Assembly: GCA_001004665.1 (NCBI GenBank)
Contig: LCRO01000003.1
Coordinates: 63,984-127,983 of the forward strand
Direction: 5' to 3'
Source: Candidatus Adlerbacteria bacterium GW2011_GWA1_54_10
GTDB taxonomy: Bacteria > Patescibacteriota > Minisyncoccia > Phycocordibacterales > SBAW01
DNA length: 64,000 bases
In this document: piece by piece, positions 1,648-30,443 of the stretch
Position numbering within the stretch: the stretch's first letter is position 1
Layout: the number at the start of each line of letters is the position of its first letter
The notes under the pieces: generated by a model
The model's database searches: none
What the model was told of the DNA's origin: nothing
The model's input: the letters and a program-made list of their open reading frames with translations, nothing else
Translations under genes and position numbers: made by a program

Positions 1648-2105
1648 AATAATTGCGAAGCAATTATTCACCCTGAGGTTACTCGAAGGGTGAATACACC
1701 TCGCAACCTAACTCGATATGACCCCTCGATACCGCCTTGCGGCGGTCCTCGGGGTGCTCAATTTTGTTACCGCTTACGCGGACAAAATTGGCAACGGAAC
1801 AAGAGAAAGATGCACCAGCCTATGGCTGGCGAAACAACTAGTCTCTTGTTTAACTTACTTACTTTAGATCGGTGTGATCTAGAACTTTTTCCTCTCCCGC
1901 TGCTCGGGATCGGAAATTTTTATTCGCTGTTGTCAAAAAACAAACCGCCGTCGGCGGTGCTCTCAAGACCTTGAGATTTCACCGTTAAGCAGTCATGGGT
2001 TCCAGTATAGCCCCTCTGAAGCGGATGTCAATGAAAAAATAAGGGCCGCTTGCGGTTACAAGCGGCCCAAGTCCAGGGAGGAAACGCCCAGGGTGGGCAC
2101 CTTCA

Positions 2106-10020: not shown

Positions 10021-10264
10021 AAAACAGAAGGTCCAAACTAACCCTTCGACAAAGCCTCAGGGGTAATTTTATAAAACAAAATCAACAACAGATTATTGCG
10101 ACTCTCAATCCATTTCCCCTCCATAAATTGCGAAGGGTTGCCCAAAAGGGGCCGGAACATCGATCGATTAGTATTCCTCGGCTCAATGCCTTGCGGCACG
10201 TACACCTAGAACCTATCAACGTGGTCATCTCCCACGGATCTTAATGATTCCTCATCTTGAAGTT

Positions 10265-10442: not shown

Positions 10443-11160
10443 CTATCGACTCGAAACGAATCAAGTCTTCCCACATTACTGTGGGGATTGGACTATACCT
10501 TCATCCCTAAATTAGGGAGACCGACGTGTAGTCTCTACGGGGTCAGCACTCGCTTAAGGCGCTTCTTTGAGTAATTTAACTCACCGAAACGATCTATCAT
10601 TTTCATCAACTTTTTGAACTCTCGTTCAGACTTTATAGTCTGTCGATACTCGAGAATCTCAAGCATTAGCTTTATTTGCTCCCGTTTTAGAACCGAATGT
10701 GGTTCTACAGCAATTAAAAATTCTTTAATTGCATCGGTCTTGCCAATAATGTATTCGATAACTCCGTCACTGCGCTCCCGGATATACCCGGACCCCACAA
10801 GACCACATAATTTTTCGAATAGCTTTTTAGCCTTTTGCGATTGAAAAAATACCACATACGGCGCAACCTGAAATCCATACTTATAGGTAGAATTAGGTTT
10901 GAGCCGCACATAAATACTTCCGTCGCCGTCTAAAAAGCCGGCAAGATATGCTTTGGTTGTTGACGAAAGCGGTTGCATGACTTCCCTCGGTATTATCCTA
11001 CCATACGACAGGTTAGGATTCCACCGATATAGTCGGTTTCTCACTGTGGATTACTCCTCAGTGCCGCCGTGAACATTCTTAACAGTGTGGTTCCAAACGT
11101 CACCACGTTTCCTCGCGGGTTCAGACAGTTCAAATTCCAAATTTCTTTAGGACCTGAACG
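10443..11160 (-). mobile_element. Group I-type intron in 23S rRNA domain V (E. coli ~2570-2595 region) carrying a homing endonuclease ORF
   Basis: 5' exon ends ...GCTGGGTTCAGAC (rc 11161-11173); 3' exon resumes ATGCGTGAGACAGGTTGGTCTCCTATC (rc 10416-10442). Intervening ~718 nt has no 23S homology and contains the LAGLIDADG ORF. Confidence 0.7.
10535..11044 (-). CDS. LAGLIDADG homing endonuclease (single-motif, I-CreI-like)
   Basis: [20 protein letters not shown]... motif; ~150-169 aa; likely start at MQPLSS (10978). Lies inside the 23S intron. Confidence 0.85.
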
Positions 11161-13312
11161 GTCTGAACCCAGCTCGCGTATCTTTTTAAATGGCGAACAG
11201 CCATACCCTTGGGAGCTTCTCCACCCCCGGGATAAGATGAGCCGACATCGAGGTGCTCTAATGCGGATGGTCGGTTCACTATGTCCTGCTTTCGCACCTG
11301 CTCGGCATTTACGCCTTGCAGTCAAGCTCCCTTTTGCCATTACGCTATCGGCACGGTTTCCATTCGCGCCTAGGGAACCTTAATGAACTCCTCCGTTACT
11401 TTTTAGGAGGATAGCGCCCCACTAAAACTGCCCACCAGATAATGTCTCGAACGCGTTTTGCGCGTCCGGTTAGTACATACAATTTTACAGAGTGGTATTT
11501 CACTGACGAGTCCGCGGCGCCCGAAAGCACCGCCTCAACCTCTCCCACCTATGCTACGCAACAAAGCCGCATGCACAATATCAAGCTACAGTAAAGCTTC
11601 TGGGGTCTTTTCGTCTAACTGCAGGTAACCGGCATCTTCACCGGTATTGTATTTTCACCGAGCGGTACTCCGAGACAGTTCCCCAGTCGTTACACTATTC
11701 GTGCGCGTCTGAACTTACCAGACAAGGAATTTCGCTTTTCGCTTCCTGTGGGCGAAGGACCATGTCTTCTTCCGTTCTGGAAGCACGGCGTATGGTCTCT
11801 TATGTGAGCCGCGTGTTTTTTAGGACCTTCTACATATTCCTATGTAGAGAAGTAGCTTTTTGTGTAACTTTTTCGCTATTTACCCGATTCTGTAATAGTC
11901 CTAGTCCTTCCCTGCTCGATTGCTCAAGCAGAGAACCTTAGGACGATTATAGTTATCGCCGACATTCACCAGGGCTTATATAGCTCGGCCCTCCAATCTT
12001 GCGATCAAAGGACGGGCCATATTTGACCTTCTGGCATTGGTCAAGTGTCACCTCCTATACATCCCCTTACGGGTTCGCAGGAAGCTGTGTTTTTGGTAAA
12101 CAGTCGCCAGGGATACTTTCGCTGCGGCCGCGCTCGCGCGCGGCAGGCCTTATTCCGAAGGTACGGCCGATTTTTTGCCGAGTTCCTTGGAGTACTCTCA
12201 CTCGTTCGCCTTGCTCTACTCGAGCTGCACACCTGTGTCGGTTTGCGGTACGGTCGTACGACCCATATAGTTTAGAAGTTTTTCTTGGAAGCCTCTTCGC
12301 AGTGGTCCTCTCAGGCGAACCTGAAAGTGCCCCGATGCTTCGACAGCGCAAAGCGGATTTTCCTGCCTTGCAAGTCTTCGGCTACGGACGCCAATCCAAT
12401 AAGGCGCCACTGTTTATGTGCTCCGTCCCTCCATCACTGAGTCGCCGGTGTGGGAATATTAACCCACTGTCCATTACCTGCGGCTTTCGCCATCGGCTTA
12501 GGACCGACTAACCCTACTCTGATCACCGTTGAGTAGGAAACCTTGTGCTTTCGGCGTGCGGGGATCTCACCCGCATTGCGGTTACTTGTGCCTGCATTCT
12601 CACTTCGCAACGCTCCACTGCGGCTCACGCCTTCAGCTTCATCGCGGATGCGAACGCTCTCTTACCACTCGTCCTTTGATTGCTCTCAGGACGAATCCTC
12701 AGTTTCGGTACTACGTTTTAGCCCCGATTATCTTCGGCGCGAGATCTCTCGATGAGTGAGCTGTTACGCTTTCTTTCAATGATGGCTGCTTCTAAGCCAA
12801 CATCCTCATTGTCTTCGAGACTTCACCTCCTTGTGATGCACTTAACGTAGATTTTGGGACCTTAACTTGAGATCTAGGACTCTTCTCCTTTTGTACGGTG
12901 GAGCTTAGCCCCCACGTACTAACTGCCGCATAACGCAAACGGTATTCGGAGTTTGATAGGATGAGCGAGCTTTCGCCCTGTCTCATCCTTCCAGTGCTCT
13001 ACCCCCGTCTGCCAATCAATGCGACGCCAGCCCAAAAGCTGTTTCAGAGAGAACCAGCTATTACAAGGTTCGATTAGCTTTTCACTCCAACCCACAAGTC
13101 ATCCGAGAGTTTTGAACGGCTCAACGGTTCGGGCCTCCGCGCTATTCACGCTCGCTTTCGCTACACCTCCGCCCTAGCGGGCTTAAGTCTATGCGGCATA
13201 CGGTAACTCGCAGGCTCATTCTTCAATAGGCACGCCGTCGAGGCTTCGATTACTCTCGGCCTCTTCGACTCTTTGTAGACATATGGTTTCAGATCTATTT
13301 CACTCCCCTTCC

Positions 13313-13358
<46 letters not shown>

Positions 13359-14061
13359 TTTGAAAGTATGTAGCCTTACCGGTTAGTTCCGGCAAATTCA
13401 CTCAAGCCATTCGTGTCTTGAGCTACTCAAGGACATTGCAGAAGTTGCTGCAGTTTCGCCTACGGGGCCTTCACCCTCTTGGGCCGCGCTTCCCAGCGCG
13501 TTCGGCTACCGCAGCAATTTGTAACTTCTTGGCCATTCGATTTCTCTCAGGCCTATCAATGCCTTATAACCCTGAAAATTTCCCGAACCCCTCGAACTAC
13601 CAAGGAGTTTGGGAAACTTTGCAGTTTGGGCTCACATTCGCGTTCGCTCGCCGCTACTGACGAAATACCTATTGGTCTCTTTTCCTCTCGGTACTGAGAT
13701 GTTTCACTTCCCGAGGTCTGCTCCCCGCATTACTGCGGGGTACTGGAGATTTCGCTCCAGTGAGTTTCCTCATTCGGACATCTCCGGATCGAAGGTTGCT
13801 TGGCACCTCCCCGGAGCGTATCGCCGCCACGCCGCGTCCTTCATCGCCTTTCAAAGCCAAGGCATCCACCATACGCCCTTATTAGTTCCAACCTCTTTTG
13901 GGAGATTGAGAACCGCAATAATCTGTTGTTTATAAGCAGAAATGCTGCGCATTTCTGCCAATACATTTGTTACCTACCCACCTCCATAGCGCACAAAAAG
14001 ACCCACACGAAGTGCGCCGCGTGGTGGAATTTAGTTGTTAAGGTACAAGATACGCGAGAAC

Positions 14062-16932: not shown

Positions 16933-19071
16933 TCACAGCCTCCGAAGTTCATCCCACCATACCGCGTCGCCCAGGTCGGTCCTGGATACGTTGGCGTCAA
17001 GACGTATGGTGTCGATGGGAATTCCGTTTTGGATATTGTCGTTGACTTTGGTGCTAAACCACGAACAGGAAACCGGATCCGTCCGGTCCGTGAGCAGGCA
17101 AAACTCTTTAAGGCCGGCCGGTCCTTCCCTCCAGAATATCGCGTACTGGTGCCACGCGTCGTCATCGGGTATGTCGTCCAATATATGCACATACTCTCCG
17201 TTCTCAGAAGGTCCATAGCTGATGAACATGTCGGGTATCGCCGTTCTAAAACCGATGTGTCTGCGGCCGCGTATGGTAAAACCGCCCTCGAGTACCGGCG
17301 TGCCGGTCTTCGCGATTACATTAAATCCGGTTTGCGCTTTTATACAGGCATTCGAGTAACAATTTTCGGAAGTCGTTGCATATCGCGTGTTTATCTCGCT
17401 CCAGCCAAGCGAATTAAAGTTGTCGAAAGAGTCTTCGAACGGAGCGTCATGGAATTCGGTTGTCAGAGCGGGCGTAGATGTCGCTTGTGATGATGGGTCA
17501 GTCGAAGTTGCGGTCGAGGTAGCGGCGGCATCTGTTTGCGAAGTGCTTGTTGCGGTTGCCGTCTCCTGCGTGCTTGTCGCAACTTCCGGCGTACTGGTGG
17601 CGGTATCAGGAGTGCTTGTAGCCTCCTCCTCGGCAGCCACCGCGGCCTGCTCCTCCTGCGCCGGAGGAGGCGGCACGTGCAATGCGCCGCCGGTGCTGGG
17701 CGAGGATTGCGGAGGAGGTGGGGGCTCCGGCGGAGGCGGGGTCATCTCGGGAAAGGGCGTCGGATTCGGTATTGGCTCGATTGAAGTTTCTTCAACTTCC
17801 GGTGTCGCGGACGCGGGCGACTCTTCAAGAGGCGTCTGCGGCGCTTCGGACTCCTCGCCCGCGACAATGCCGGGTTCTTCGATTTTTTGAGGCGCCGTGT
17901 CTCGCGCGATTTGCGGCGGGACAGTAACAGGCGTAGGTTCCGGTTCGAGCGCGGGAGCAGTTGCGACCGAGGCGCCAAGAAGCTCGTCATATTCTTCCTG
18001 ATTCAGGCTCGAGCCGTAGAGCTTCTTAACAACCTTAAAGCTCTTGCTCGCCGTTTCTTTAAAATCCAGTTCCGCCTGGCTGACGTTCTTCGCCTTCAGT
18101 TTTCCGGCCTGCCTTTCTTTTTCCGCTTCTTTGAAAAACAGATCGATTACCCCAACCCCGCTTTCGATCGCGCGTTTTGATAACACGCGCCAGTAATCAG
18201 ATGCCACAGAGTCATTTTCATCATCAAATTTTATTTCAATTTCTTTAATAAATTCTCCGGCTTTTTTATTAATTCGTACTTCTGCACGAGCAACTTTGTG
18301 TCCGAATCTGGAATATACAAATCCATTTTTTATATCCAAACTATCCAATATAGGAGAAGAGTAATTTTTAAACAGAGTATCTTTACTCAAAAAATTTTTG
18401 TTCGTAAACTCCGCGGTAAAATCAAACGCTTCGGAAAGACCAATAAAGTTTGGGGTTTGTAGATTGTTTGGAACGGCGACTTGGCTAAATTGACCCGTAA
18501 AATTCTCGTAGGGGTCCGCGTCACCGTAGCCATTGTGGTTAAGATGCGGATCGTTGCGCACATGCGCCGGCACCGTCGCGTCCTGCAGTAAATGCAAAAT
18601 ATGCCCCAGCGTTTCTGCGGCGCGCGCTTTGTCGCCATAAACATATTCATATACGGCCCTGTCCCACGAGTAGTCGGTGGGCGAGCTAAACCATTTGTCA
18701 TTATAGCCAACATGCGTGCCAAAGCAGATAATGGTGCCCCAGCAGTTGTAATTCCCCTGCGCCTCGGTATCCCGCGCCCACTGCTTTGACGACTCGAATT
18801 CTCCTCTCCAAACAGTCAATCCACGATTATTTACCGGGTCGTAGAAGTGGTTTGTCGGGCGTGAGCCAAAATCCTCTCCCGAGCTCCCGCGAACAATTTC
18901 CCTATCGAACATCGAGACAAAAGTTCCGCTGTGCAATTGCCCGTATGCCTCAACGGTCGCCCGCGCAAGCGCCTCGTGCGTATTTGTCTCGTATGCCCAT
19001 GCAAAAAACGGGGACATAATCCCCGCTAACAAAATCAAACTTTTCAAAATCAAAGCTCGAGTATTTTCCAT
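16933..19071 (-). CDS. Secreted zinc-dependent phospholipase C-like (S1-P1 nuclease-fold) protein with Pro/Thr/Ser/Glu-rich linker and C-terminal lectin-like domain
   Basis: Signal-peptide-like N-terminus; HFYDP and LGHILHLLQDATVPAH motifs match Zn-PLC (PF00882-like) signatures; ~160-aa low-complexity linker (PPPEPPPPPQSS, TST repeats). Confidence 0.6.
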   Translation of the reverse strand: MENTRALILKSLILLAGIMSPFFAWAYETNTHEALARATVEAYGQLHSGTFVSMFDREIVRGSSGEDFGSRPTNHFYDPVNNRGLTVWRGEFESSKQWARDTEAQGNYNCWGTIICFGTHVGYNDKWFSSPTDYSWDRAVYEYVYGDKARAAETLGHILHLLQDATVPAHVRNDPHLNHNGYGDADPYENFTGQFSQVAVPNNLQTPNFIGLSEAFDFTAEFTNKNFLSKDTLFKNYSSPILDSLDIKNGFVYSRFGHKVARAEVRINKKAGEFIKEIEIKFDDENDSVASDYWRVLSKRAIESGVGVIDLFFKEAEKERQAGKLKAKNVSQAELDFKETASKSFKVVKKLYGSSLNQEEYDELLGASVATAPALEPEPTPVTVPPQIARDTAPQKIEEPGIVAGEESEAPQTPLEESPASATPEVEETSIEPIPNPTPFPEMTPPPPEPPPPPQSSPSTGGALHVPPPPAQEEQAAVAAEEEATSTPDTATSTPEVATSTQETATATSTSQTDAAATSTATSTDPSSQATSTPALTTEFHDAPFEDSFDNFNSLGWSEINTRYATTSENCYSNACIKAQTGFNVIAKTGTPVLEGGFTIRGRRHIGFRTAIPDMFISYGPSENGEYVHILDDIPDDDAWHQYAIFWREGPAGLKEFCLLTDRTDPVSCSWFSTKVNDNIQNGIPIDTIRLDANVSRTDLGDAVWWDELRRL

Positions 19072-19580
19072 TTGTTAGTAAATGGATTTTTGGTCAGGCG
19101 AACTCCAAAGGCTGTATTTTCGTTTTGAGGAAAAACTTCTATTTCATAAATACCGGACGAACCAACTCCAGATGGAGGAACTAATCTCCCATTATGATAG
19201 GCATTAATAAAGAACTGATTTGAACCTAATTTTAATTCTTTTAAATTTTCCTCTTGCTTCTCCACCACAAAATACTTCGACGCCAAAACAAAATCCTCCT
19301 TCTCCAACGCCTCTACAAACAATCGCAAAGTTTCCTCCGGCGTAGCGCCGCCGTAGGCGTCGGCGCGGTAGGCAGCTTCAAGGTTCCCGGACTCGGCTTC
19401 CATCCTCTGCCATTCCTCCCGCGCAAGAATATTTTGCATGCGCACCACGGCTTGGTCGCCAACCCACTCGAGATAATTTCTCGTAAAAATGGTCCCTATG
19501 ATAAGGACAAGAACCCCGATCCAAAACTCCCACCGCTTGAATATCAGCTTCCTCTCCCCTTCCGGCAATGAGTCATTCAT
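19050..19580 (-). CDS. Hypothetical membrane-anchored protein
   Basis: 176 aa; one N-terminal TM helix; no recognisable motifs. Confidence 0.4.
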   Translation of the reverse strand: MNDSLPEGERKLIFKRWEFWIGVLVLIIGTIFTRNYLEWVGDQAVVRMQNILAREEWQRMEAESGNLEAAYRADAYGGATPEETLRLFVEALEKEDFVLASKYFVVEKQEENLKELKLGSNQFFINAYHNGRLVPPSGVGSSGIYEIEVFPQNENTAFGVRLTKNPFTNKWKILEL

Positions 19581-19620
19581 CTACAAATTTTACCATCATA
19601 GACTTATCCACAGTTTTTCT

Positions 19621-19643
19621 TGCGAAGGTCAGACCTTCGCAAA
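19621..19643. repeat. 23-nt perfect palindrome (copy 1, overlaps transposase stop codon)
   Basis: ttgcgaaggtcagaccttcgcaa; 11-bp perfect arms. Confidence 0.9.
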
Positions 19644-20312
19644 CCGTTCTCCTGTATAAGATTTTAACAATTCTTCAAGATCATTTTGAGTCCTAAGGAA
19701 ATCTGGGGCTTGGTCAGAAGAAAGGACTGCGCCTTCCGGTCGATTACCCGAGATGTAGTCATAGAAACTTGAGTAGCGGTAAGAATGCAGGAAATTTCTC
19801 GCCGTATTTCCATCCGTTATACCTATTTTTTCCCAATCTGGAAAAACCAACGAAAGAGGATTGAGATGTACATAAGCAAATATGTAACGGAAATAGGGCT
19901 CGTCGTCTACATGTCTACTTTTAAATGCTCCTTGTGCAATAATACCGCTGTGTTTGTGGAGAATATTGAAATACATCGAGTAGCCGGTGAAAACCTTTCG
20001 GGTAAATTTTGATATCCCACACTCTTTTTTCTCGCGTAAAACTAGATGGAAGTGATTAGGCATTAAACAATATGCGAATATATCCACAAGTGATTTGTCT
20101 GGTTTTTCCTCTTTGAAAATAACCGCGGAATCAAAGCCTTCGTACTTTCTTAATGTCTCACGGACATCTACTCTACAATCGCTGTTTGATAAGTGGAGAA
20201 GCAAAAGAAAACGCTTATAATCCGAATCGGTTGTGAAAATGGATTGTTTATGGGCACCTCTATTATAGAGATGATACATTTCTCCAACTGCAAAGGGAGC
20301 ATCTTTTCTCAT
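19629..20312 (-). CDS. HUH Y1 transposase (IS200-like / REP-associated tyrosine transposase-like)
   Basis: 227 aa; HUH motif CLMPNHFHLV and downstream Tyr-containing helix (RYIFAYVHLNP) typical of Transposase_17 (PF01797-like) proteins. Confidence 0.7.
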   Translation of the reverse strand: MRKDAPFAVGEMYHLYNRGAHKQSIFTTDSDYKRFLLLLHLSNSDCRVDVRETLRKYEGFDSAVIFKEEKPDKSLVDIFAYCLMPNHFHLVLREKKECGISKFTRKVFTGYSMYFNILHKHSGIIAQGAFKSRHVDDEPYFRYIFAYVHLNPLSLVFPDWEKIGITDGNTARNFLHSYRYSSFYDYISGNRPEGAVLSSDQAPDFLRTQNDLEELLKSYTGERFAKV

Positions 20313-20338: not shown

Positions 20339-20370
20339 CTCCATCGTAACATTGAAGATGAACGAATCAT

Positions 20371-20393
20371 ATGCGAAGGTCTGACCTTCGCAA
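20371..20393. repeat. 23-nt palindrome (copy 3)
   Basis: atgcgaaggtctgaccttcgcaa. Confidence 0.9.
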
Positions 20394-20442
20394 GAACTGT
20401 GGATAACTTTCGATTCGCGATGTTTAGTCTTGCGATTGCCCT

Positions 20443-21004
20443 CTAGCGGGAGTTGAGGAGGTCGATCTGCTTTTGGATTTGGCCGGCGAGATCGGGGTTG
20501 CCAGCGGAAGTGGCGGCTAGTTTTGCCTTGCCGTACCACTCTACGGCCTGCGTCTTATCGCCCTTTTCCACATAGTAACCCGCGAGCGCGGTCATAAGGT
20601 CGATGCGGCCGTTGTCCGAAACTTTTTCTATACCCTCCTTCAGCACATCCGCCGCCAAAGTGCCGTCCTGCTTGTAGGAATATTTGTAGAGCTCGTGGAG
20701 TCCGGAGTAGTTCAGTGCGAATCCCGGATTCGCTTCTATCGCCTTGCGGTAATAGTTTTCCGATTGCGCATACTGCTTGAGATCGAGATGATAGGTACTG
20801 CCAAGGTTGTAATACGCCACCGGATGGCACGTTTTGCGTGAGTATCTGGCGCGCCTCTTGCGGAAAATCCGCAGGGAAATTCAGCTCCCTGTCGAGCGAC
20901 GGAGCCTTGGCCGGCCCGACGCGGAGCAACCCGCCAAACCACAAGCCCGCGGAGAATAAAACTATAACAGCGACACCGATACCAACCTTAAGTTGCGTAC
21001 TCAT
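20443..21004 (-). CDS. Membrane-anchored TPR-repeat protein, split by a frameshift near 20830-20850
   Basis: ORF 20555-21004 gives TM anchor + linker, then runs out of frame; ORF 20443-20820 (other frame) gives TPR-like repeats (AYYNLGSTYHLDLKQYAQSENYYRKAIEANP...). Confidence 0.5.
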
Positions 21005-21031: not shown

Positions 21032-22141
21032 TTATTGCATCCCGTTTACTATTGTGCGGGTCTTGGGGCCGAAGTAGCCGGCCGCCGGAGAGATATTATT
21101 AGTCTTTTGGAATTTGACGAGCGCGGCGCGAGTCAAGCCGCCGAATCTGCTTGTCTCGTTGCCGGACGAACCAGGGCCGCTCGCCGCCACCTCGTAGCCG
21201 TGAGTATTCAGGAACACCTGCAGGGCCTTGACGTCGTCGCCTGTCATTCCGATTTCCAGATCGCGAGTGAACGCTCCAAATACTACCGTCGCGCTGGGAG
21301 TGGTGGACGGTGCCGCGCTCGCGGCAGGGACCAAAACGTCGCCGTTAAGCGCCGCGCGCGTCTTGGGGCCAACGTAGCCGGTCTGCGATATGCCCATGCT
21401 CTTTTGATACGCCCGAACCGCCACGCGCGTGAGTCCGCCGAAATATCCCTTGGCAATGCCGGACGGTATCGTCAGAAATCCTTTATTCTCAAGAAATGTT
21501 TGCAGAGCCACAACGGCATCATTTTCCGCTCCGATTCCGAAATCCTCCGAAAACGCTATCCCCGCGGTTGCCGGTGCAGAAGTTTGCGTCGAAGTTTGCG
21601 TGCCTGTTTGCGTCGTCGCCGAGGTGGAAGGGGTTGTCTGCGTAGTGCTGGTGGTCGTGGTCGTAGTGCTTGTCGTAGTTTGCGTGGTTGCAATCGGACC
21701 GCCCCCGCCGCCGCCTCCACCGCCGCTGCTGCTACTGCTGCTGCCTCCGCCGCTTGGACCGGCGCTCGGACACGCGGTGGTATTTGGAGTTACGGTAACG
21801 GTTGTTGTGCCATCTACAGAAGAAATCGATGTGAGCGAGGTCCCTCCGCTCTCGCATGTCGTAGCGGCCGAGTAGCCGGAAGTGGTTGCCGTAGAAACGC
21901 CGGTCAGATATCCGTTTGCGCTCCGCGCATCAAACGAGGATGACGGCGCGACCGCGACGTTGAAACTGTTTGTATCAACTAGAAGAGACTCGACGGAAGA
22001 TGAGGCGACGGACGTGAACGAAACGCTGTTCGACGATATCGTAACGTCCGCGCCTATTGTCACGTCGTTATACGTCGCGAGCGCAACCGCCGGCAGAAGA
22101 AGCGCAATGGCTCCCAAGAGTATTCCCAGTATTTTTTTCAT
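21032..22141 (-). CDS. Secreted protein: signal peptide, Ser/Thr/Gly-rich region, two C-terminal peptidoglycan-binding (PG_binding_1-like) repeats
   Basis: MKKILGILLGAIALLLPAVALA signal; poly-Gly/Thr tract; two copies of DVKALQVFLN..GY.....GYFGPKTR.AL..FQ. Confidence 0.7.
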   Translation of the reverse strand: MKKILGILLGAIALLLPAVALATYNDVTIGADVTISSNSVSFTSVASSSVESLLVDTNSFNVAVAPSSSFDARSANGYLTGVSTATTSGYSAATTCESGGTSLTSISSVDGTTTVTVTPNTTACPSAGPSGGGSSSSSSGGGGGGGGGPIATTQTTTSTTTTTTSTTQTTPSTSATTQTGTQTSTQTSAPATAGIAFSEDFGIGAENDAVVALQTFLENKGFLTIPSGIAKGYFGGLTRVAVRAYQKSMGISQTGYVGPKTRAALNGDVLVPAASAAPSTTPSATVVFGAFTRDLEIGMTGDDVKALQVFLNTHGYEVAASGPGSSGNETSRFGGLTRAALVKFQKTNNISPAAGYFGPKTRTIVNGMQ

Positions 22142-22181
22142 ACGGTTGCCATAGTGAGCTTATAAATTAAGGACAAGCTCA

Positions 22182-22904
22182 CTATTTGCAGTCCCCAGCT
22201 TCTATGCGGAGAGTTGTGCCGTTGACGTATATTCTGGTAACTATTCCGGCGTCATTCTCAAGCTGGATACAGCCGCCCTTGGTATCGTGAGAAGACGTTA
22301 TCCAGAGCGTCGTCGTGCCGGGGCCGTCCACGATTGCCTCGGCGTGCGAGTACTGCGGCGTCGTCGAACCTACCGTAAGAAGACTCGCGACAGTTGTAGT
22401 GGCAAGCGTAGACGTTGCGGACGAGACCGAAAGTGTGGAGGTAAGTGCAACTGCCCCGTCAAAGTATGCCGCGCCGTCAACTTCCATAGCGCCCTCGACA
22501 CCGAGTTCGTCGGCGCCAACCGCGCCGATGTTGCCGAAGGTCGTGCCAGTGCCGACGCGCACCTGCGTAAAGTAGCCGGTTGCGGTAATTGAATCTGTAA
22601 CCTCATCGCCCAAAGTCGAGTTGCCGTTAACGGTAAGAGCCCCCTCCGTGGCAATAGCGCCGGTTGCGGCTGTTGTCGTTGCAAAGCCGTTGACCATGAA
22701 GTTGCCTGTCATAGAGGCGATGGTCGAAGAAGCGGTTGTTAGCGACGAGTGGCCTGAAACCGTGAGTGTGCCTGCGGTGTCTATATTAGCGTTAATGGTG
22801 GTTGCGGCGCCTACGATAGTGGCACCAAGAGCGACCGCGCCAAGGACCGAGAGTCCGACCAAAGCGGCGGAACGGGTCTTGCCGCGAATAAACGAGCTTT
22901 TCAT
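22182..22904 (-). CDS. Secreted Thr/Gly/Ala-rich hypothetical protein
   Basis: Start trimmed to MKSSFIRGKTRSAALVGLSVLGAVALGA (signal-like); low-complexity beta-rich body. Confidence 0.5.
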   Translation of the reverse strand: MKSSFIRGKTRSAALVGLSVLGAVALGATIVGAATTINANIDTAGTLTVSGHSSLTTASSTIASMTGNFMVNGFATTTAATGAIATEGALTVNGNSTLGDEVTDSITATGYFTQVRVGTGTTFGNIGAVGADELGVEGAMEVDGAAYFDGAVALTSTLSVSSATSTLATTTVASLLTVGSTTPQYSHAEAIVDGPGTTTLWITSSHDTKGGCIQLENDAGIVTRIYVNGTTLRIEAGDCK

Positions 22905-22992
22905 ATTGACATTAAAATAAAATAATAAGTGCACCAATTGAGCGCACAAAAAACGTCTTTCTATTATAGACCCAAAATAAAGGCATCCTGTG

Positions 22993-23006
22993 GAACTGTG
23001 GATAAC
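22993..23006. repeat. Third copy of the 14-nt gaactgtggataac motif (contains DnaA-box consensus TTATCCACA on minus strand)
   Basis: Identical 14-mer to 20394-20407; located ~89 nt upstream of the 22182-22904 gene start. Confidence 0.8.
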
Positions 23007-23008
23007 GC

Positions 23009-23039
23009 AAAAACCCCTCCGTCTTTCGGAGGGGTTTTT
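23009..23039. terminator. Bidirectional intrinsic terminator (aaaaacccctccg-tcttt-cggaggggttttt)
   Basis: 8-bp GC stem flanked by A5 and T5; 3' of the 23082-26633 gene. Confidence 0.7.
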
Positions 23040-23081
23040 GCTTGTGCGTTAGCCAGGAGTTCCTAGCCAGCTTGTGTTTGG

Positions 23082-26000
23082 TTACTTCGAGAGCGTCTGG
23101 CCCGAGAGACCGGCGGACGGAAGGCCGGATATGCCATAGCCGTTCGTCCAGTCAAGATTGTGAGCCGTGGACGTAGTTGTGGCGTTCGGCGACCAGATGA
23201 AGTCGTCATTCCCGCCGCCGTTGCCGTCCACCGTAGCGGCCTTGGCTGTAAGCGGACCGCCTAGATGCGGATATGCCGCATCGCCGACGAGTTTCGTCGT
23301 AAGCGAGCCACTGAATGTGCCTGTGCCGGCAGTAAGTGCAACATCGAGCACTACCTTGAAGTAGTACGTCGAGCCCGCCGGGACCTGCAGGACCGACGAG
23401 AGAACCGCGCTGTTATCGCCCGCGATTATCTGGCCGTCGGTGCCGTCGAAGACGAGACCGTCGGTGTAGCCCGATACCGCCTGGCTCATCGCCGAGTCGG
23501 TGTAGGCGTAGATGTCGAGGTTCTCTACCGACGTAGTGCCGGTAACTGCGCTGTTGGCGCTGGTAGCCACATTAACGGTGAACTTGTAGAGCCCGATACC
23601 GTTCGGATTGCCAGTGTTGCTTGCAGTGACGCTGAAGCAGTGTACCGCTTGGGCCGTGCCGGTTATGAGCGTGCCAAGGCTAGAACACGCGCCACTGCTG
23701 TACTGAGCGACGGTCGGAACATCGCGGAATATGCGGATGCCCGCGCCGTCGGTGTCAGTGGCCGACCCTTGGTTTATGGTCGTGCCCGACGCCTGGCCGA
23801 TAGAGCGAGTGCCGGTCGTGTCATTGCCGTCGTACTCGACCTCAAGCAGGAGGCCGTTGGTCGTGGTTGCCTGTCCGGTGCCGATGCCCGCAAGATCGCC
23901 TTTGACTGTGATGACCTTGTAGCCGTTGGCCGGAATGGTAACCGTGCCACAACCGGTGCAGGTGCCTATCGTCGAGGTCGCGTAGCGGCTGGTGAAGATC
24001 GCTTCGCCCACCTTTGTTGCGCCGTCCCACAGCGTTACTTTGTTGATGTTGGACGGAGTCGATGTCGAGGCGCCGTTAGCCATCTCGAGGGCCACGCGGT
24101 CGAGTTTCTGGTCCTCGTTGGTGCCGTCGAAACGGATTATGTTGAGCAATGAGTTGCTCACGCCCGCGACAGCTATTGTGTAGGACGGAGCCGATGCGTC
24201 GCGGCTGACCGTGAGCGCGCCGGAACCCGCTATCGTCATCGTGTTGCCTCCGGTCGTGATGGAAGCGGCGATAGAACTGCCGGAGCCAATGCCCGTGCCC
24301 GAGATCGTGTCGCCGTCGGTAACGCCCCATGCGAACGTGTCGGAGGCCGTAGCGCTGCCCGGAATATCACATTTGATGGCGACCGTCTTGGTTGTGCCTT
24401 TTGGCACCACAAGCGCGGTATCGAATGTGAAGGTATGCGCCGCCGTAGAGGACGGGTTGACCGAAGTGTCATTGAGCCGCTGTGAGCCGTCGTAGGCCAC
24501 GCAGTTGCTGACGTCGGTTGTCATACCGTCTGTATAGCGGAACTGCGCGCTGTTGAAGCGCACATCCTCGCCGGACTGACCGGCGTCGAAGATTATGTTC
24601 GCCGCGGTGAAGCCGATTACGCCCGCGACCACGTTTTGCGCGGCCGGAGTGCCGGATACCGATGCCGTCACGCTGCCGGTCTTGACCGTCATCGTGTTCA
24701 TCGAGAAGTTCCCCTGCGTAATGCTGATGGTGTTGCCGGTGATGGCCCCCGTGCGGCCCGACCAGCCGGACGGCGTCGTCGAGGCGCTTACCGTTTGGTT
24801 GTTGGAGACCGTCGAAGGGAGCTTGCCCTTGAGCGAGAATACGTGCCTGCCGGTTGGGAAGGTCACCGAGTCGCTGAAGGTCGCGACTTGGAGTCCGCCC
24901 GAAGCAGAAGCGTCAACCGGGCCCGCAACTATTTTGCCGTTCTCATCGACGATGCTGATGCTCGTCAAGAGCTCGGAAGCGTTGCTGTCGGCGTTCGTTC
25001 CATAAGAGATGTTGAATATCATCTGCGTCATGGTAACGCCCTCGCCCTTGAAGTCTGTCACGAAACCGCCAAGAGGCTGGTTAGCGACCTGCACGGCGAT
25101 GTTCTGCGCCGGAACTTCAGCCGCTTTGCCGATGAGGTTCACCGTCGCGGCGTTGATGGTCGTTACATAGCCAGAAGTCCACGGGGTCGAGGTCGAGTGC
25201 GACATGCCGATGCCGAATCCATAGGTCTGTCCCACGAAGTAGATGTCGGTAGACTTGTCGATGTCGAAGTCGACTGTGCGGCTTGCGGAGTTCGCGCCGA
25301 CGATGTCGCCGCGGACGTGTATGTCTATCGTATTGCCCTTGGGGATCGAGATTCCGCCTGGGAATACGCTCGTGTAGTACTTGCCGGAGCTGTCAACGGT
25401 GGTCGGGTAGACCGTGCCGTCTATGAGCGTCTGAACGTTGGCCAAGTCGGAAGGACCGACCGTGCCTACCTGGCGCCACCTTAGGCTGTGGAGCTTGAGG
25501 TCCTCCGCCGAGCCTGCGGTGAAGCGCTGGCCGGTAAAGCGGACCGCCGTATCGCCGAGGTTTTTGGTCTGGGCCGCCGCCGGGTCGAAGGCGCTCGTGG
25601 TGGTCGAGATCGTGCCTATCGAGAGCGTTTCGTTGACGGTGTGGCTGGCTCCTGTGATTGGGAGAGAGCCGGATACCGCCGCCGAGGTGTTTACTGCCAC
25701 GACCGCGAGGCTTGCGACCTCGCCCGCGTGGCTGTTGGTGTCGGCTCGGTTGCCCGCGACCGTGAAGGTTTTGGACGTGCCCCTCGGGATAACAACCGTG
25801 TCGCCGATAGTGGCTTGATGGTTGCTGTTGAGAGTGCGCGCGATGCCGACTTGCGCCCCTGTCGAGGCGTCAAGCAATACAACACCGGCGAAAATCGCAT
25901 CATTTGCAGCGCCTTGGCGTTCCACCGTGATGCTGTTTATCGTCACGTCGCCGTCATTGCCCGCGGTGAGCGTGAAGTTGGTGAACGGAATGCGGTTCGC

Positions 26001-26633
26001 GTTGTCGGGAGCAAGGCCGTTCATAGGCTGGATTGCCGCCGAGACGGAAACGCCCGTGCCCGGAGTCGGAGTCGGTGTCGGTGTGGGGCTAGGGGTCGTG
26101 CCGCAGACCGCCGCGATAGCCGCGCGAGTGATAGGGCCAACGTAGCCTGCTACAGGCGCAACGTTATTTGCCGCCTGGAACTTCATGGCCGCCGCCTTCG
26201 TAATGGGCCCGAAGTAGATGCTTTCATTTCCAGGGGAACCAGCACCAGTAACGGCGAGCTGGGTCGAAGCACTTCCGTTAAGGAAGACCTGCAAGGCCTT
26301 CACATCGGCACCGCTCGAACCTTGCTGGAGGTCCCGAGAGAGCGCGGGGCATGCGCCGGCAGAGCCGCCGGTGCCCGGAGTCGCCTGGCCTTGGAGAGCC
26401 GCGGTGACGTTAGCTATCGTTGCCGAGTCCGCACCAAACGATGCGAGCAGGGAAACGATCGACTGGATCTGCGCCTGTGTGAGCGCCGCCGCTTGCGCGG
26501 GAGCGATAGCGACCGCGCCCATAAGCGCGAGCGCGACCGCGACGCCGGTCGCGAGCGCAACCAGTCTGGTCGAACTGTTGGTAATAGTCATAACCAATAA
26601 ATAAGTCGAACAAATTAACTTACTGGTAAACAA
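23082..26633 (-). CDS. Giant (~1170 aa) secreted/surface protein: signal/TM, PG_binding_1-like domain, Pro-Thr linker, long array of beta-rich repeat domains
   Basis: N-terminal hydrophobic segment; DVKALQVFLNGS...YFGPITKAAAMKFQ PG-binding motif; TPSPTPTPTPTPG linker; repetitive Thr/Ser/Gly-rich Ig-like segments. Likely start M at ~26591. Confidence 0.65.
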   Translation of the reverse strand: MFTSKLICSTYLLVMTITNSSTRLVALATGVAVALALMGAVAIAPAQAAALTQAQIQSIVSLLASFGADSATIANVTAALQGQATPGTGGSAGACPALSRDLQQGSSGADVKALQVFLNGSASTQLAVTGAGSPGNESIYFGPITKAAAMKFQAANNVAPVAGYVGPITRAAIAAVCGTTPSPTPTPTPTPGTGVSVSAAIQPMNGLAPDNANRIPFTNFTLTAGNDGDVTINSITVERQGAANDAIFAGVVLLDASTGAQVGIARTLNSNHQATIGDTVVIPRGTSKTFTVAGNRADTNSHAGEVASLAVVAVNTSAAVSGSLPITGASHTVNETLSIGTISTTTSAFDPAAAQTKNLGDTAVRFTGQRFTAGSAEDLKLHSLRWRQVGTVGPSDLANVQTLIDGTVYPTTVDSSGKYYTSVFPGGISIPKGNTIDIHVRGDIVGANSASRTVDFDIDKSTDIYFVGQTYGFGIGMSHSTSTPWTSGYVTTINAATVNLIGKAAEVPAQNIAVQVANQPLGGFVTDFKGEGVTMTQMIFNISYGTNADSNASELLTSISIVDENGKIVAGPVDASASGGLQVATFSDSVTFPTGRHVFSLKGKLPSTVSNNQTVSASTTPSGWSGRTGAITGNTISITQGNFSMNTMTVKTGSVTASVSGTPAAQNVVAGVIGFTAANIIFDAGQSGEDVRFNSAQFRYTDGMTTDVSNCVAYDGSQRLNDTSVNPSSTAAHTFTFDTALVVPKGTTKTVAIKCDIPGSATASDTFAWGVTDGDTISGTGIGSGSSIAASITTGGNTMTIAGSGALTVSRDASAPSYTIAVAGVSNSLLNIIRFDGTNEDQKLDRVALEMANGASTSTPSNINKVTLWDGATKVGEAIFTSRYATSTIGTCTGCGTVTIPANGYKVITVKGDLAGIGTGQATTTNGLLLEVEYDGNDTTGTRSIGQASGTTINQGSATDTDGAGIRIFRDVPTVAQYSSGACSSLGTLITGTAQAVHCFSVTASNTGNPNGIGLYKFTVNVATSANSAVTGTTSVENLDIYAYTDSAMSQAVSGYTDGLVFDGTDGQIIAGDNSAVLSSVLQVPAGSTYYFKVVLDVALTAGTGTFSGSLTTKLVGDAAYPHLGGPLTAKAATVDGNGGGNDDFIWSPNATTTSTAHNLDWTNGYGISGLPSAGLSGQTLSK

Positions 26634-27070
26634 TTGTTAATCGCACTTCGCACGGTACGGGAACGTAGAACATGTTCTACCTCAAACCAAGTACTAGCCC
26701 ACTATGGGATTAGCCATTGGTAAGTTTGGTAGCCAAGTAGATGACGGACATACAGCCATTGTCTTTCCATGAAGGGACAAGGAGTTTCAGGGTATGAAAT
26801 TTTCAATGACCAATCAAAACAGACTCTGCGACCGTGCAGGGGCTAGGGGTTATTATAAGCCCCGAAAGATGCCCGCAAAAAAGTCCTGTGGACAACCCTC
26901 CTTCGCCAAAGGCTACGGACGGGCAAGCAAAATAGCCCTATAAATTAGGGGCTCCTTTTGTTAGTTCCACATGAAATGAAGATATACCAAGAGGGGCGAT
27001 GGGTCAATTTGACAAAATATTTAAAAATGCTGAAGTATCATGCCGGCACCGGGCGTTGCCATTTTTGAGC

Positions 27071-27748
27071 CTATGCCGGCTCGTAATGGCTCCAACGGCG
27101 CTCCCCCACTCTTTTTACAAGACCCTGCTCTATAAGTATCCCAAGCTCGCGCTGGATCGTTTTTTCACTGCAGTCTTTTACAATTGACATGATGTCTTTA
27201 ATTGATGGACTTTTTTGTTTTTTTATAAAATCCAGTATTAAGGACATTCTGTCCTTTTGTCCTTTATATTGTCCTTTATGTCCTTTATGAAAAGGCTCGT
27301 CCTTTATAGTATCCGAGAGGGCCGGCAGTCGCTCGGGCTCCCCTGGCAGGGAGATGGCAAACTCCTCGGTTCCGAACGGCGAGGGATGGCTTCCCTCGAC
27401 CAGCTTCTCCGCCAATTGTTCATACTCGCGGCACAACACAGTGGCATTTTCCTGTGACAATGCTTCGTTTGTCGCCGCCAGTCGCGTGCCCGCAAGCAGA
27501 GCAAAAACGTCCGCGAGGGCCGCTTCGGCATCAAGCTCGCCCGCCGCAAGGCGCGCAACGGTACCGGGCAATTGCGCCGCAATATGGGCCAAATCCTCAA
27601 GGACATTGCCGGGGGACGTTCGCGCCAGAAGCATAAATACATGCGCGATGCGCTCTGATTTTAGGAAGCAAAAATACCAGTCGTGCCGTCCTTTAAAAAG
27701 GATTGATTTTAAGGCAAATTCATGAAATTTTTTATGTTTGTCCGGCAT
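27071..27748 (-). CDS. Hypothetical regulator with C-terminal winged-HTH and internal HKG/QYKG tandem repeat
   Basis: C-terminal SIKDIMSIVKDCSEKTIQRELGILIEQGLVKRVGERRW resembles DeoR/HTH_11-type wHTH; HKGHKGQYKGQKD encoded by tandem gtcctttat repeats. Confidence 0.45.
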   Translation of the reverse strand: MPDKHKKFHEFALKSILFKGRHDWYFCFLKSERIAHVFMLLARTSPGNVLEDLAHIAAQLPGTVARLAAGELDAEAALADVFALLAGTRLAATNEALSQENATVLCREYEQLAEKLVEGSHPSPFGTEEFAISLPGEPERLPALSDTIKDEPFHKGHKGQYKGQKDRMSLILDFIKKQKSPSIKDIMSIVKDCSEKTIQRELGILIEQGLVKRVGERRWSHYEPA

Positions 27749-27874: not shown

Positions 27875-30064
27875 ATGGCGCGGAAAAACAGGAAGGACAT
27901 CGCGGCGCTAAATCCGTTAAAAAATATTCCCGAACACACAAAGAAGGCGATCGCAGTTGTGATACTCGTCGTGCTGGGGCTTTTTCTTACTCTTGCGTCC
28001 TTCGATGCGGCGGGCATCGCAGGAAGCGACGCGTACACCCTCTTCGCCTCCCTGCTCGGGGTTGGATACTTCCTTTTGCCGGTCCTGTTTTTTGTTCTTG
28101 CCGCTGCGACGCTTAAAGAAGAGAGGCCGGGATTCTCATTTTTAAAATTATTCGCGAGCGCACTCTTTCTGATTGCCGGGCTTGGATTCGTCGAAGCCGT
28201 GAGCAAAAACGGCGGACTCGTCGGCAGGGCCATAGCAGGGCCCGCGATTTTGTACTTTGATATTTATGCGGCGCTGATAGTGCTCGGCGGACTGCTTATA
28301 GTCGCAATCCTGCTCCTTCTTGAAAGTCGGATCACTCTTGAGCCGCTTGCGAGCTTGTGGAATTTTTTGCGAAAAACGTGGAATGTTTTAACGCACCGGG
28401 AGCAGCCCGCGGCCGGACTTGCGCCGGATGATCAATTGCCTGAAGCGGAGATTGAAGTGACCGAGGATGAGGAAATAATAATAGCGGAGCCGCGGGAGAC
28501 GCCGACCCCGAGGCAGAAATCCGCATTCAGCCTCAAGTCCCTGCTAGACACTTACGTCCCGCCGCCCTTATCGCTGCTCGAGAGGGACCGCGGAAGGCCC
28601 GGCGTCGGCGACATTAAGTCCAATGCCAACATAATAAAGCGCACTCTGCAGAACTTCGGCATTCAGATAGAGCTTGATGAAATTTCGATAGGCCCAAGCG
28701 TCACGCGCTACGCCATCAAGCCCGCCGAGGGCGTGCGCCTGCAGAAAATAGTCTCGCTCCAAAACAATCTGGAGCTCGCTCTGGCCGCGCATCCTGTGCG
28801 CATAGAGGCTCCCATACCCGGCAAGTCGCTGGTCGGCATCGAGGTACCTAATTCCGCCAAAGTTACCGTCGGACTCGGCACACTGCTCGAGTCGCCGCAA
28901 TTCGCGCAGTCGCAAAAGCCGCTTCTTGTCGCGCTCGGGCGCGACATCGCGGGAGGGTCGCACTTCGGCAATCTCGCGCGTATGCCGCACCTTCTTATCG
29001 CGGGCGCCACCGGGTCGGGAAAATCCGTGGCGATACACGGGATAATAAACTCGCTGCTTTACCGCTGCGGCCCCGCGCAATTGCGCATTATCATGATAGA
29101 CCCCAAGCGCGTGGAGCTTACGCTTTATCGCTCTCTTCCCCACCTCCTTACTCCCGTAATAACCGACGCCAAGCGCGCCATCATGGCCCTGCGCTGGGCG
29201 GGAAGGGAGATGGAGAGGCGCTATGTAATCTTAGAGGAGACGCGCGTACGCGATGTCGAGTCGTACCACCAAAATATTCTCGCGCCCGCGGTCGCCAAAG
29301 CAAAGGCCGGTAAAGCGGCGAGCGAAGAAGAAATACCGGAGGCCATGCCCTATATCATCATCGCGATCGACGAACTTGCTGATATCATGCAGACTTACCC
29401 GCGAGAACTCGAGGGGGCTGTGGTGCGACTGGCGCAAATGAGCCGCGCGGTCGGGATACACCTGCTTCTCTCGACCCAGCGCCCTTCGGTCAACGTCATC
29501 ACGGGACTCATCAAAGCGAACATTCCGGCGCGCATCGCGCTCCAGGTCGCATCGCAGTTCGACTCGCGCACGATACTCGACCAGGGTGGCGCGGAGAATC
29601 TACTTGGCAGCGGTGACATGCTCTATCTGGGAGCCGAGATGCAGAAACCCGTGCGCTTGCAGAACGCGTTCATCTCGGAAAAAGAAGTGAAGTCGGTCGT
29701 TGATTTTATAGCGAAGAATAACGAGGCCGAGGTGCCCGTAGAAATAGGCGCGCCTGGACAAAGCGGCGAGGCTAGGGCGCCTGCCCTCCACAGTCTCGAC
29801 GAAGGAGGCTTCGAAGAAGAAATAGACGACGAGTTGTACGAGGCCGCGCGCGCGGCCGTCGTGGAGGCCGGCAAGGCCAGCACATCTTATCTCCAGCGCA
29901 AACTTCGCATAGGCTACGCGCGCGCGGCGCGGATCGTAGACCTCCTCGAGGAGCGCGGGATTGTCGGTCCCGGCGAGGGGGCGAAGCCGAGAGAAATATT
30001 GGAGAGATCAACAGGCGCGACCGATACGGAAACCGCGAAGCAAGAGTTCCTCGCGGAGGAGTAG
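27875..30064 (+). CDS. ftsK: DNA translocase FtsK/SpoIIIE
   Basis: 729 aa; N-terminal TM helices, Walker A GATGSGKS, Walker B IIAIDELAD, C-terminal gamma domain (wHTH). Confidence 0.9.
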   Translation: MARKNRKDIAALNPLKNIPEHTKKAIAVVILVVLGLFLTLASFDAAGIAGSDAYTLFASLLGVGYFLLPVLFFVLAAATLKEERPGFSFLKLFASALFLIAGLGFVEAVSKNGGLVGRAIAGPAILYFDIYAALIVLGGLLIVAILLLLESRITLEPLASLWNFLRKTWNVLTHREQPAAGLAPDDQLPEAEIEVTEDEEIIIAEPRETPTPRQKSAFSLKSLLDTYVPPPLSLLERDRGRPGVGDIKSNANIIKRTLQNFGIQIELDEISIGPSVTRYAIKPAEGVRLQKIVSLQNNLELALAAHPVRIEAPIPGKSLVGIEVPNSAKVTVGLGTLLESPQFAQSQKPLLVALGRDIAGGSHFGNLARMPHLLIAGATGSGKSVAIHGIINSLLYRCGPAQLRIIMIDPKRVELTLYRSLPHLLTPVITDAKRAIMALRWAGREMERRYVILEETRVRDVESYHQNILAPAVAKAKAGKAASEEEIPEAMPYIIIAIDELADIMQTYPRELEGAVVRLAQMSRAVGIHLLLSTQRPSVNVITGLIKANIPARIALQVASQFDSRTILDQGGAENLLGSGDMLYLGAEMQKPVRLQNAFISEKEVKSVVDFIAKNNEAEVPVEIGAPGQSGEARAPALHSLDEGGFEEEIDDELYEAARAAVVEAGKASTSYLQRKLRIGYARAARIVDLLEERGIVGPGEGAKPREILERSTGATDTETAKQEFLAEE

Positions 30065-30071
30065 GGGTTGC

Positions 30072-30443
30072 ATGAAAAAAATAATCATTTTAGTTATTGT
30101 CCTAGTCGTACTATCGTACAGTCTGTTTGAAGCGCGAAAATTGATCGCGGGCCCGCGCATAACGATAGAATCTCCATCAAACGGCACAGCCACTTCGACC
30201 GACCTGGTGCTGGTAAAAGGAGTGGCGGAGAATATAGACTTTTTGACTATAAACGATTCGCCAGCCTATACCGACGAGGAGGGCCGATTTACGTACCGCT
30301 ATTCCCCGCCAGCGGGGTATACTGTGATAGTGGTCGCCGCGGCGGACCGCTTTGGCCGCCGCGCTTCGAGATCGGTCGTCATTACCGTCGTTAACTATTG
30401 CCCGGTCAAAGACCTGACTTTGGCCAAGCAAAAAAATGTTTAA
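30072..30443 (+). CDS. Small membrane-anchored hypothetical protein (Ig-like extracytoplasmic domain)
   Basis: Start trimmed to [16 protein letters not shown] (TM); overlaps recA start by 8 nt. Confidence 0.45.

Follow-up and report, generated by a model that had tools for sequence, protein, structure and literature searches.

The Candidate Phyla Radiation (CPR) accounts for a large share of bacterial diversity, and its surface layer (S-layer) is visible by cryo-tomography; to our knowledge, no CPR S-layer protein has been proven experimentally. Does a 64-kb stretch of the genome of a Candidatus Adlerbacteria bacterium, an ultra-small groundwater organism (contig LCRO01000003.1; the whole stretch is hereafter the window) encode such a protein, and how might its synthesis be controlled? 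The question is raised by three open reading frames (ORFs) for secreted proteins, the giant gene A and two smaller genes, B and C, which an earlier sequence-only reading had interpreted as a cell-envelope module of S-layer-like or adhesin/fibre proteins anchored non-covalently to peptidoglycan. ORF translation confirmed three co-directional genes lying head-to-tail, all on the minus strand, so that the order of transcription is A, B, C, and the envelope interpretation agrees with all of our findings. We conclude that gene A most likely encodes the S-layer protein of this organism. A constant length, synteny with the core genome, an anchor-linker-assembly layout, an acidic isoelectric point (pI), a gradient of conservation and the expression signals of the gene all point the same way.

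The 3' end first assigned to A, at 23082, was upheld and the start was revised: the alignment of homologues, which begins MxIT..., and GenBank record OGC87258.1 favour the ATG at 26591 over the TTG at 26633. Protein A is 100% identical to this record (A0A1F4Y075; 1169 aa). By reading of the sequence, the N-termini of A, B and C each have a basic start, a hydrophobic core and a small-x-small cleavage site (in A, between APAQA and A), in keeping with the signal peptides that had been proposed for all three. A composition count bore out the suggested richness in Thr, Ala, Gly and Ser, and the mature proteins have pI values of 4.8, 4.1 and 5.2, respectively.

The AlphaFold2 model of A, built on 52 homologues (mean predicted local distance difference test score, pLDDT, of 83.8), has a disordered N-terminus (residues 1-36, pLDDT <50), two short helices, a low-confidence Pro/Thr linker and then six beta-sandwich domains of immunoglobulin (Ig)-like fold, with limits at about 180-325, 326-476, 477-628, 629-782, 783-948 and 949-1169. 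A BLASTP self-comparison of A detected no internal repeats, and the six domains are mutually related only by profile-profile comparison (hhalign) and structure prediction. Of the long beta-repeat array previously described, the beta domains are thus retained, as six diverged Ig-like units, and the sequence repeats are not. Invariant Trp, Asp and Asn residues mark the C-terminus (DFIWSPN...DWTNGY), and conservation falls along the protein from 0.68 in the peptidoglycan-binding domain and 0.70 in the first Ig-like domain to 0.56 in the sixth domain and C-terminus.

The putative anchor of A is a PG_binding_1 domain. The motif DVKALQVFLN...FG...FQ, which had been read as this fold, is common to A and C. 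In a hidden Markov model (HMM) search with PF01471 (gathering cut-off 23 bits), C was matched over two stretches, at about residues 207-265 and 297-365 (92.5 bits, E 1.9e-26), and NCBIfam matches of SleB-type wall-binding families fell on the same region. A itself scored 22.2 bits (E 1.6e-4), just under the cut-off, and most A homologues carry a precomputed PF01471 match. The helical peptidoglycan-binding fold of A is borderline by HMM and clear in the predicted structure. Both PG_binding_1 matches and predicted signal peptides are present, as opposed to the lack of such a match and the cytoplasmic location that had been named as evidence against an envelope assignment. Other means of attachment were looked for: the A C-terminus (...GQTLSK) has neither an LPXTG/sortase motif nor a transmembrane (TM) segment, and no SLH or CWB2 domain was matched by Pfam in A, B or C. 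Searches of solved structures gave no sequence match for A or B.

In being large (114 kDa) and acidic (pI 4.8) and in having a conserved wall anchor, A shares traits that are typical of S-layer proteins, with the caveat of its eight cysteines. A 2024 preprint that applied AlphaFold-multimer with planar symmetry (bioRxiv 10.1101/2024.05.28.596244) describes a patescibacterial protein whose six Ig-like assembly domains form a left-handed spiral, and predicts p6 'hexagonal spiral pyramid' S-layers for six-Ig patescibacterial proteins, with homologues called numerous. The examples are from Kaiserbacteria (A0A0G1WWP5, 1173 aa), Nealsonbacteria (A0A1G2EN61, 1131 aa) and Parcubacteria (GMX59286.1, 1185 aa). 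Homologues are given there as being among the five most highly expressed signal-peptide genes of two Paceibacteria, and the metatranscriptomic study concerned (PMC10936435) identifies these top-expressed genes as encoding peptidoglycan-binding-domain proteins of similar predicted structure. Protein A resembles these proteins in phylum and class, in length (1169 versus 1131-1185 aa), in a signal peptide followed by six Ig-like domains and in the very large number of homologues. From the same taxon, length, domain count and N-terminal anchor we infer that A belongs to the six-Ig patescibacterial S-layer family. As an S-layer role of six-Ig proteins is already proposed in that preprint, A is a new member of a predicted, experimentally unproven family; the available part of the preprint makes no mention of the box in the promoter, the hairpin in the leader or the synteny with winged-helix and TPR genes, all of which are described below. 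What appears new is the box with its helical phasing, together with the small regulon and the hairpin of the leader.

A more distant counterpart of A is the csg protein of Haloferax volcanii, which also has six serial Ig-like domains and forms a hexagonal lattice. It is archaeal, no sequence similarity to A was detected, and it is held by a C-terminal lipid or membrane anchor, whereas the anchor of A is an N-terminal PG_binding_1 domain. The preprint notes a 'striking resemblance' of its models to csg in basic architecture and left-handed spiral geometry, and places the C-terminal rather than the N-terminal domain at the pyramid tip, unlike csg (bioRxiv 10.1101/2024.05.28.596244). Among Gram-positive S-layer proteins, Sap of Bacillus anthracis, SbsB/SbsC of Geobacillus and SlpA of C. 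difficile share with A a Sec signal, a non-covalent wall-binding module and assembly domains, but their anchor is SLH or CWB2 on a secondary wall polymer and that of A is PG_binding_1 (PF01471). The slpA and sbs genes have strong promoters, long 5' leaders and high expression.

Several points weigh against assigning A to the S-layer. Many S-layer proteins are without any cysteine, and A has eight, the positions of which suggest four pairs (81/163, 697/741, which is invariant, 878/881 and 969/985). Ig-like domains in series are just as typical of adhesins, and the S-layer role of A is a prediction from sequence and modelled structure. The model of B is of low confidence, and the putative interaction of B with C is suggested by their adjacency. 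The probable place of A in the preprint family is drawn from taxon, length and architecture. Moreover, the only measured patescibacterial lattice is of 13 nm, a better fit for the shorter three-Ig protein than for six-Ig proteins, for which 18.5 nm is predicted (bioRxiv 10.1101/2024.05.28.596244).

An unlikely alternative is that A is a host-attachment adhesin of an episymbiont, with the Ig-like stalk projecting and the peptidoglycan-binding or distal domains binding the host surface. The closest Foldseek matches of the beta-sandwich array include fibrillar adhesins with Ig-like stalks (PrgB, antigen I/II and BspA), among them the Ig-like regions of the Gram-positive adhesins PrgB and antigen I/II, and highly expressed peptidoglycan-binding-domain proteins have been read as possible host-attachment factors (PMC10936435). 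Set against these fibrillar adhesins, A has no LPXTG motif, no near-identical tandem repeats and no recognisable adhesive tip, and its family is constant in length and domain number. Identity of 43-55% across class-level diversity, comparable to that of FtsK in the same loci, and a single conserved chromosomal position amid housekeeping genes also argue against a host-attachment role, as does the N-terminal, cell-proximal location of the peptidoglycan-binding domain beside the signal peptide, which is the position of a self-anchor. Furthermore, archaea lack peptidoglycan, and the hosts in PMC10936435 are archaea. The two roles are not exclusive, since an S-layer can also mediate adhesion.

The A family, of Paceibacteria, is very large and near-constant in length. 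More than 1230 full-length homologues of A were found, with 46-55% identity and lengths of ~1106-1256 aa; at E<=1e-30 the family has 759 representatives of 50%-identity clusters, and the species-representative genomes that contain relatives number 491, spread over Adler-, Kaiser-, Yonath-, Nomura-, Taylor- and Zambryskiibacteria. In 80 fetched A loci, in which neighbours were located by tblastn, gene order was near-fixed, with recA and ftsK on one strand followed by a divergent winged-helix gene, a long spacer, A and a membrane TPR gene; rplJ/rplL and an MscS-like gene lie a few kilobases further on. The winged-helix gene was directly upstream of A in 76/80 loci, and the TPR gene directly downstream in 68 of the 72 loci with enough sequence. 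The C-terminal motif CSEKT(I/L)QREL...GERRWS.Y of the winged-helix protein is shared across loci. In each genome examined, one conserved A locus was counted at this position. B and C, by comparison, accompany A in about six genomes. These counts indicate that the conserved unit consists of the winged-helix gene, the leader, A and the TM-TPR gene, with B-C as an accessory pair. Thus the comparative analysis did recover a conserved unit for A, though of other membership than the three-gene cluster first proposed, of which the adjacency holds and the unity does not.

A second conserved feature lies in the leader of A. A perfect TT(A/G)TCCACA, usually (A)GTTATCCACA, is present on the coding strand in 78/79 A leaders. 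It is followed by a -35-like TTTGCA or TTTTGC, a gap of ~17 nt and TATAAT (perfect in 65/76 leaders). The spacing from box to -10 is bimodal, at 29-32 nt (60 loci) or 39-44 nt (16 loci), and the modes differ by one helical turn, as would be the case for a protein site that must face RNA polymerase. The window has four perfect boxes (0.43 expected) and only four composites of box and -10. The latter precede A, B (right after the terminator of A), a Y1-transposase-like gene at 20312 and, with one mismatch, an Rfam suhB/mmgR-like RNA at 2105..2028. The same layout of box and TATAAT is found ahead of B-like genes in loci L007, L079 and L080. The 80 loci together contain 128 perfect boxes, where ~17 would be expected naively; 76 are upstream of A, and most of the others are on the same strand downstream of A, ahead of B-like, MscS-like, Y1-like and p176-like genes.

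The 9-mer matches the DnaA-box forms TTATCCACA / TTGTCCACA. Three other explanations of the site were rejected or judged improbable. A replication origin in the leader is rejected by the single box per leader, the lack of dnaA in the window and a GC skew that is negative on both sides of the locus. A -35 element of a nearby sigma factor of the extracytoplasmic function type is ruled out by the 29-44 nt spacing to the -10. A general promoter element is unlikely, since no box lies in the parts of the window that hold rRNA, tRNA and ribosomal-protein genes. Candidate binders are DnaA, the adjacent winged-helix protein and a DnaA-domain-IV protein like that in locus L068. A literature search found no paper that ties DnaA boxes to S-layer genes or to Patescibacteria.

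We tentatively propose, as a possibility that remains doubtful, that the S-layer gene and a small envelope gene set are under direct activation by DnaA, or by a DnaA-domain-IV paralogue, through a single consensus box on one helical face upstream of the -35, with the conserved hairpin in the 5' untranslated region (5'UTR) as a second, post-transcriptional layer in the Adlerbacteria clade. The set would comprise the B-C fibre pair, the MscS-like channel and the Y1-transposase-like gene. In organisms that have very few transcription factors, such control would link outer-coat synthesis to growth state or to the initiation of replication. DnaA-regulated promoters (dnaA, nrdAB, sda) are alike in having an exact consensus 9-mer upstream of a sigma-70-type promoter and helical-phase-dependent spacing. 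They differ from the A promoter, where DnaA binding is putative, in that here a single box stands at an envelope-protein gene and is conserved across a whole bacterial class. A plausible alternative, though one that we hold to be short of probable, is that the box serves as an operator not for DnaA itself but for the neighbouring winged-helix protein or a DnaA-domain-IV paralogue, either being a dedicated regulator of the S-layer and a few envelope genes. The synteny of the winged-helix gene with A and the single, unclustered nature of the box are consistent with this, as is an ORF 5 kb downstream of A in locus L068 that combines a DnaA-domain-IV-like segment (GGRDHTT) with a sigma region-4-like helix-turn-helix. 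Evidence for DnaA itself comes from the 9-mer and its flanks, (A)G-TTATCCACA-(G), which match the canonical high-affinity DnaA box, presumably in the manner of R4 of E. coli oriC, and from TTGTCCACA, which is used by high-GC genomes and which we take to be a variant of high-GC DnaA boxes.

The L068 ORF (14691-15534, plus strand, ~5 kb downstream of the A homologue) has its DnaA-domain-IV-like segment around ...GELLGGRDHTTIIYAYNKI... and its helix-turn-helix of sigma-70 region-4 type; the available part has no AAA+ module, and the ORF extends past the end of the locus. A protein of this type is a possible alternative reader of DnaA boxes.

The leader from which this promoter would act had been described as ~430 nt and non-coding, which agrees with 437 nt to the TTG and 479 nt to the ATG; over 79 loci the spacer between the winged-helix gene and A ranges from 289 to 1063 nt (median 678). 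The coding strand of the leader has no ATG-started ORF of at least 20 aa, and an Rfam search gave nothing credible for the leader (best, an SAH riboswitch on the wrong strand at 18.7 bits versus 37). In the 12 closest relatives the 5'UTR is ~200-350 nt with conserved blocks, and a CUACC:GGUAG pair is present in every minimum-energy fold. The hairpin inserts are of 33-113 nt, unlike in sequence and length, yet always paired. A globally stable 5'UTR is rejected, as the 254-nt UTR of the window is no more stable than shuffled sequences (z -1.1). A terminator had been proposed between the genes, and the hairpin at 23034..23014 with its T-run, between A and B, has a predicted free energy of -28.2 kcal/mol (z -8.3).

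A distal promoter-like site occurs further upstream, with its TTGAC and TATAT blocks conserved in the alignment of 12 leaders. It is followed by a small hairpin and T-run (window 26925-27007, minus strand), both elements being conserved in the 12 closest relatives and the hairpin being weak in the window (z -1.0). This arrangement could represent tandem promoters or an attenuator ahead of the S-layer gene.

Taken as an S-layer protein, A would be exported by Sec with removal of its signal peptide and would be held non-covalently on the cell's own peptidoglycan by the N-terminal, disulfide-bracketed PG_binding_1 domain, the fold of which is seen in the model. The Pro/Thr linker would space A from the wall, and the six Ig-like domains may build a hexagonal lattice by self-assembly, leaving the C-terminal end, which evolves faster, on the exposed side, as suggested by the AlphaFold-multimer models of same-architecture proteins in the preprint. 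Expression would depend on a near-consensus sigma-70-type promoter whose -35 is preceded, at a distance of about one to two helical turns, by a DnaA-box-like activator site, and the transcript would have a ~250-nt 5'UTR with a conserved hairpin and end at a very strong terminator, a layout that is as expected of a structural protein made in very large amounts. Of the conserved neighbours, the winged-helix gene is a candidate regulator and the TPR gene a candidate assembly or anchoring factor, while B-C would form a separate accessory operon under the same promoter type. The locus is a clean, complete example of the leading CPR S-layer candidate in which the peptidoglycan anchor, gene partners and expression signals are explicit, and these define targets to clone, label or seek in omics data. 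The near-universal DnaA-box-like site is, in addition, a testable lead on control of the most abundant envelope protein in genome-reduced bacteria.

B and C are inserted between A and the TPR gene in the window. Besides the window and its sibling assembly, five loci (L007, L014, L080, L079 and L052) have a B-like gene next to A, and in every case a C-like gene follows within ~30-40 nt (40 nt in the window), its product sharing the N-terminal domain of C and having a C-terminal peptidoglycan-binding domain. B-C is an accessory two-gene module with its own promoter of the A type. The 35 relatives of B are all patescibacterial or unnamed. In the AlphaFold2 model of B (pLDDT 71) an N-terminal signal-peptide helix is followed by ~175 residues without regular secondary structure (36-210) and by a small beta domain at the C-terminus, in which two cysteines are conserved. 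A fold search with B gave no match at E<=0.001, and Bactofilin (PF04519) was not matched in B and was matched in 3/28 B relatives (best E 5.7e-6). A probable reading of B is a secreted fibre whose small C-terminal beta domain is disulfide-bonded, and the model is what the monomer of a multimeric fibre would look like. From the strict adjacency of the two genes, C, with two peptidoglycan-binding domains, may be the base that retains B at the wall, a suggestion that we make with low confidence.

The accessory status of B-C bears on whether A, B and C could be unrelated wall-binding proteins, for example wall-remodelling accessories, that are neighbours by chance. This we consider very unlikely. 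PG_binding_1 is mostly found on cell-wall hydrolases, and B and C are missing from most A loci; yet Pfam, NCBIfam and fold searches revealed no catalytic domain in any of the three proteins, the promoters of A and B are of one rare type with only four examples in 64 kb, and six genomes have B-C next to A. The positions of all of these features are collected in Table 1.

Table 1. Positions of the genes, protein domains and regulatory features within the 64-kb window
Feature	Position	Strand	Description
Gene A	23082..26591	-	1169 aa; candidate S-layer protein; mature ~114 kDa, pI 4.8
A residues 1-34, signal peptide	26490..26591	-	Sec-type, predicted cleavage after AQA; read from sequence
A residues 81-163, PG_binding_1 domain	26103..26351	-	Cys81 and Cys163 at its two ends
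A residues 164-179, Pro/Thr linker	26055..26102	-	TTPSPTPTPTPTPG; from sequence; pLDDT <50 for residues 165-177
A residues 180-1169, six Ig-like beta-sandwich domains	23085..26054	-	conserved Trp-rich motif DFIWSPN...DWTNGY at end
Gene B	22182..22904	-	240 aa; secreted, acidic, T/A/G-rich
Gene C	21032..22141	-	369 aa; secreted; N-terminal beta domain, Gly/Ser/Thr linker, two PG_binding_1 domains
Leader/intergenic region upstream of A	26592..27070	-	479 nt, non-coding
DnaA-box-like 9-mer	26887..26895	-	TTGTCCACA; upstream of A
Proximal sigma-70-like promoter of A	26852..26880	-	TTTTGC 26880..26875, 17 nt, TATAAT 26857..26852
Distal promoter-like site, candidate P1	26979..27007	-	TTGACC-17-TATCTT; consensus scan; putative function
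5'UTR hairpin	26674..26736	-	closed by invariant GCUACC...GGUAG, variable interior
Intrinsic terminator of A	23009..23034	-	8-bp GC stem, flanking A/U pairs extend predicted fold, TTTTT
Promoter of B	22963..23005	-	TTATCCACA 23005..22997, 28 nt, TATAAT 22968..22963
Winged-helix gene	27071..27748	-	225 aa; C-terminal DeoR-like motif; weak HTH_DeoR match; upstream neighbour of A
Disrupted TM-TPR gene	20443..21004	-	two reading frames; 134 nt missing at junction 20827/20826
rRNA genes	338-1653, 9910-10023, 11117-13892	-	16S/23S/5S set

The TM-TPR gene is broken in the window by a 134-nt deletion that shifts the frame (the matching stretch is at 13137-13270 of L086). In a sibling assembly, with 99.98-100% identity over 17.6 kb, the TM-TPR gene is intact and encodes 231 aa, and the disruption is either a population variant or an assembly error.

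Other genes recur around A. A gene pair at 16933-19580 (minus strand) encodes a TM protein of 176 aa and a secreted protein of 712 aa whose middle region is rich in Pro, Thr and Ser; the pair recurs downstream of A in 7-8 of the 80 genomes (L009, L012, L021, L045, L065, L080 and L083) and received no family assignment in a profile search. A Glucodextran_B/CarboxypepD_reg-like secreted or TM protein of ~112-160 aa (window 29961-30443, plus strand; also L002, L004 and L086) is encoded between ftsK and recA, a position conserved across these genomes.

Inverted copies of TTATCCACAGTT plus the palindrome TTGCGAAGGTCAGACCTTCGCAA, at 19604-19640 (plus strand) and 20366-20406 (minus strand), stand on either side of the Y1-transposase-like gene (19629-20312), and a third copy of TTGCGAAGGTCAGACCTTCGCAA lies just ahead of the gene start. 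The locus may be a REP/RAYT-like arrangement in which the DnaA-box-like 9-mer would be the hairpin 'foot'. Similar units of box plus hairpin, with other hairpin sequences, were seen in L013, L019 and L020.

The suhB/mmgR RNA family (RF00519) was described from alphaproteobacteria. In this CPR genome it is matched at 2028-2105 (minus strand) with 62 bits against a gathering score of 41. The match is preceded by a promoter-like site at 2105-2148 (minus strand), TTATCAACA-29 nt-TATAGT, is followed by a terminator and is located just upstream of the 16S rRNA promoter. The 16S match has 1316 nt of sequence for the full 1533-position model, and the rRNA genes are unlinked, with 16S ~9.5 kb from 23S-5S and genes for SecD/F, a sugar transferase and FtsW/RodA in between.

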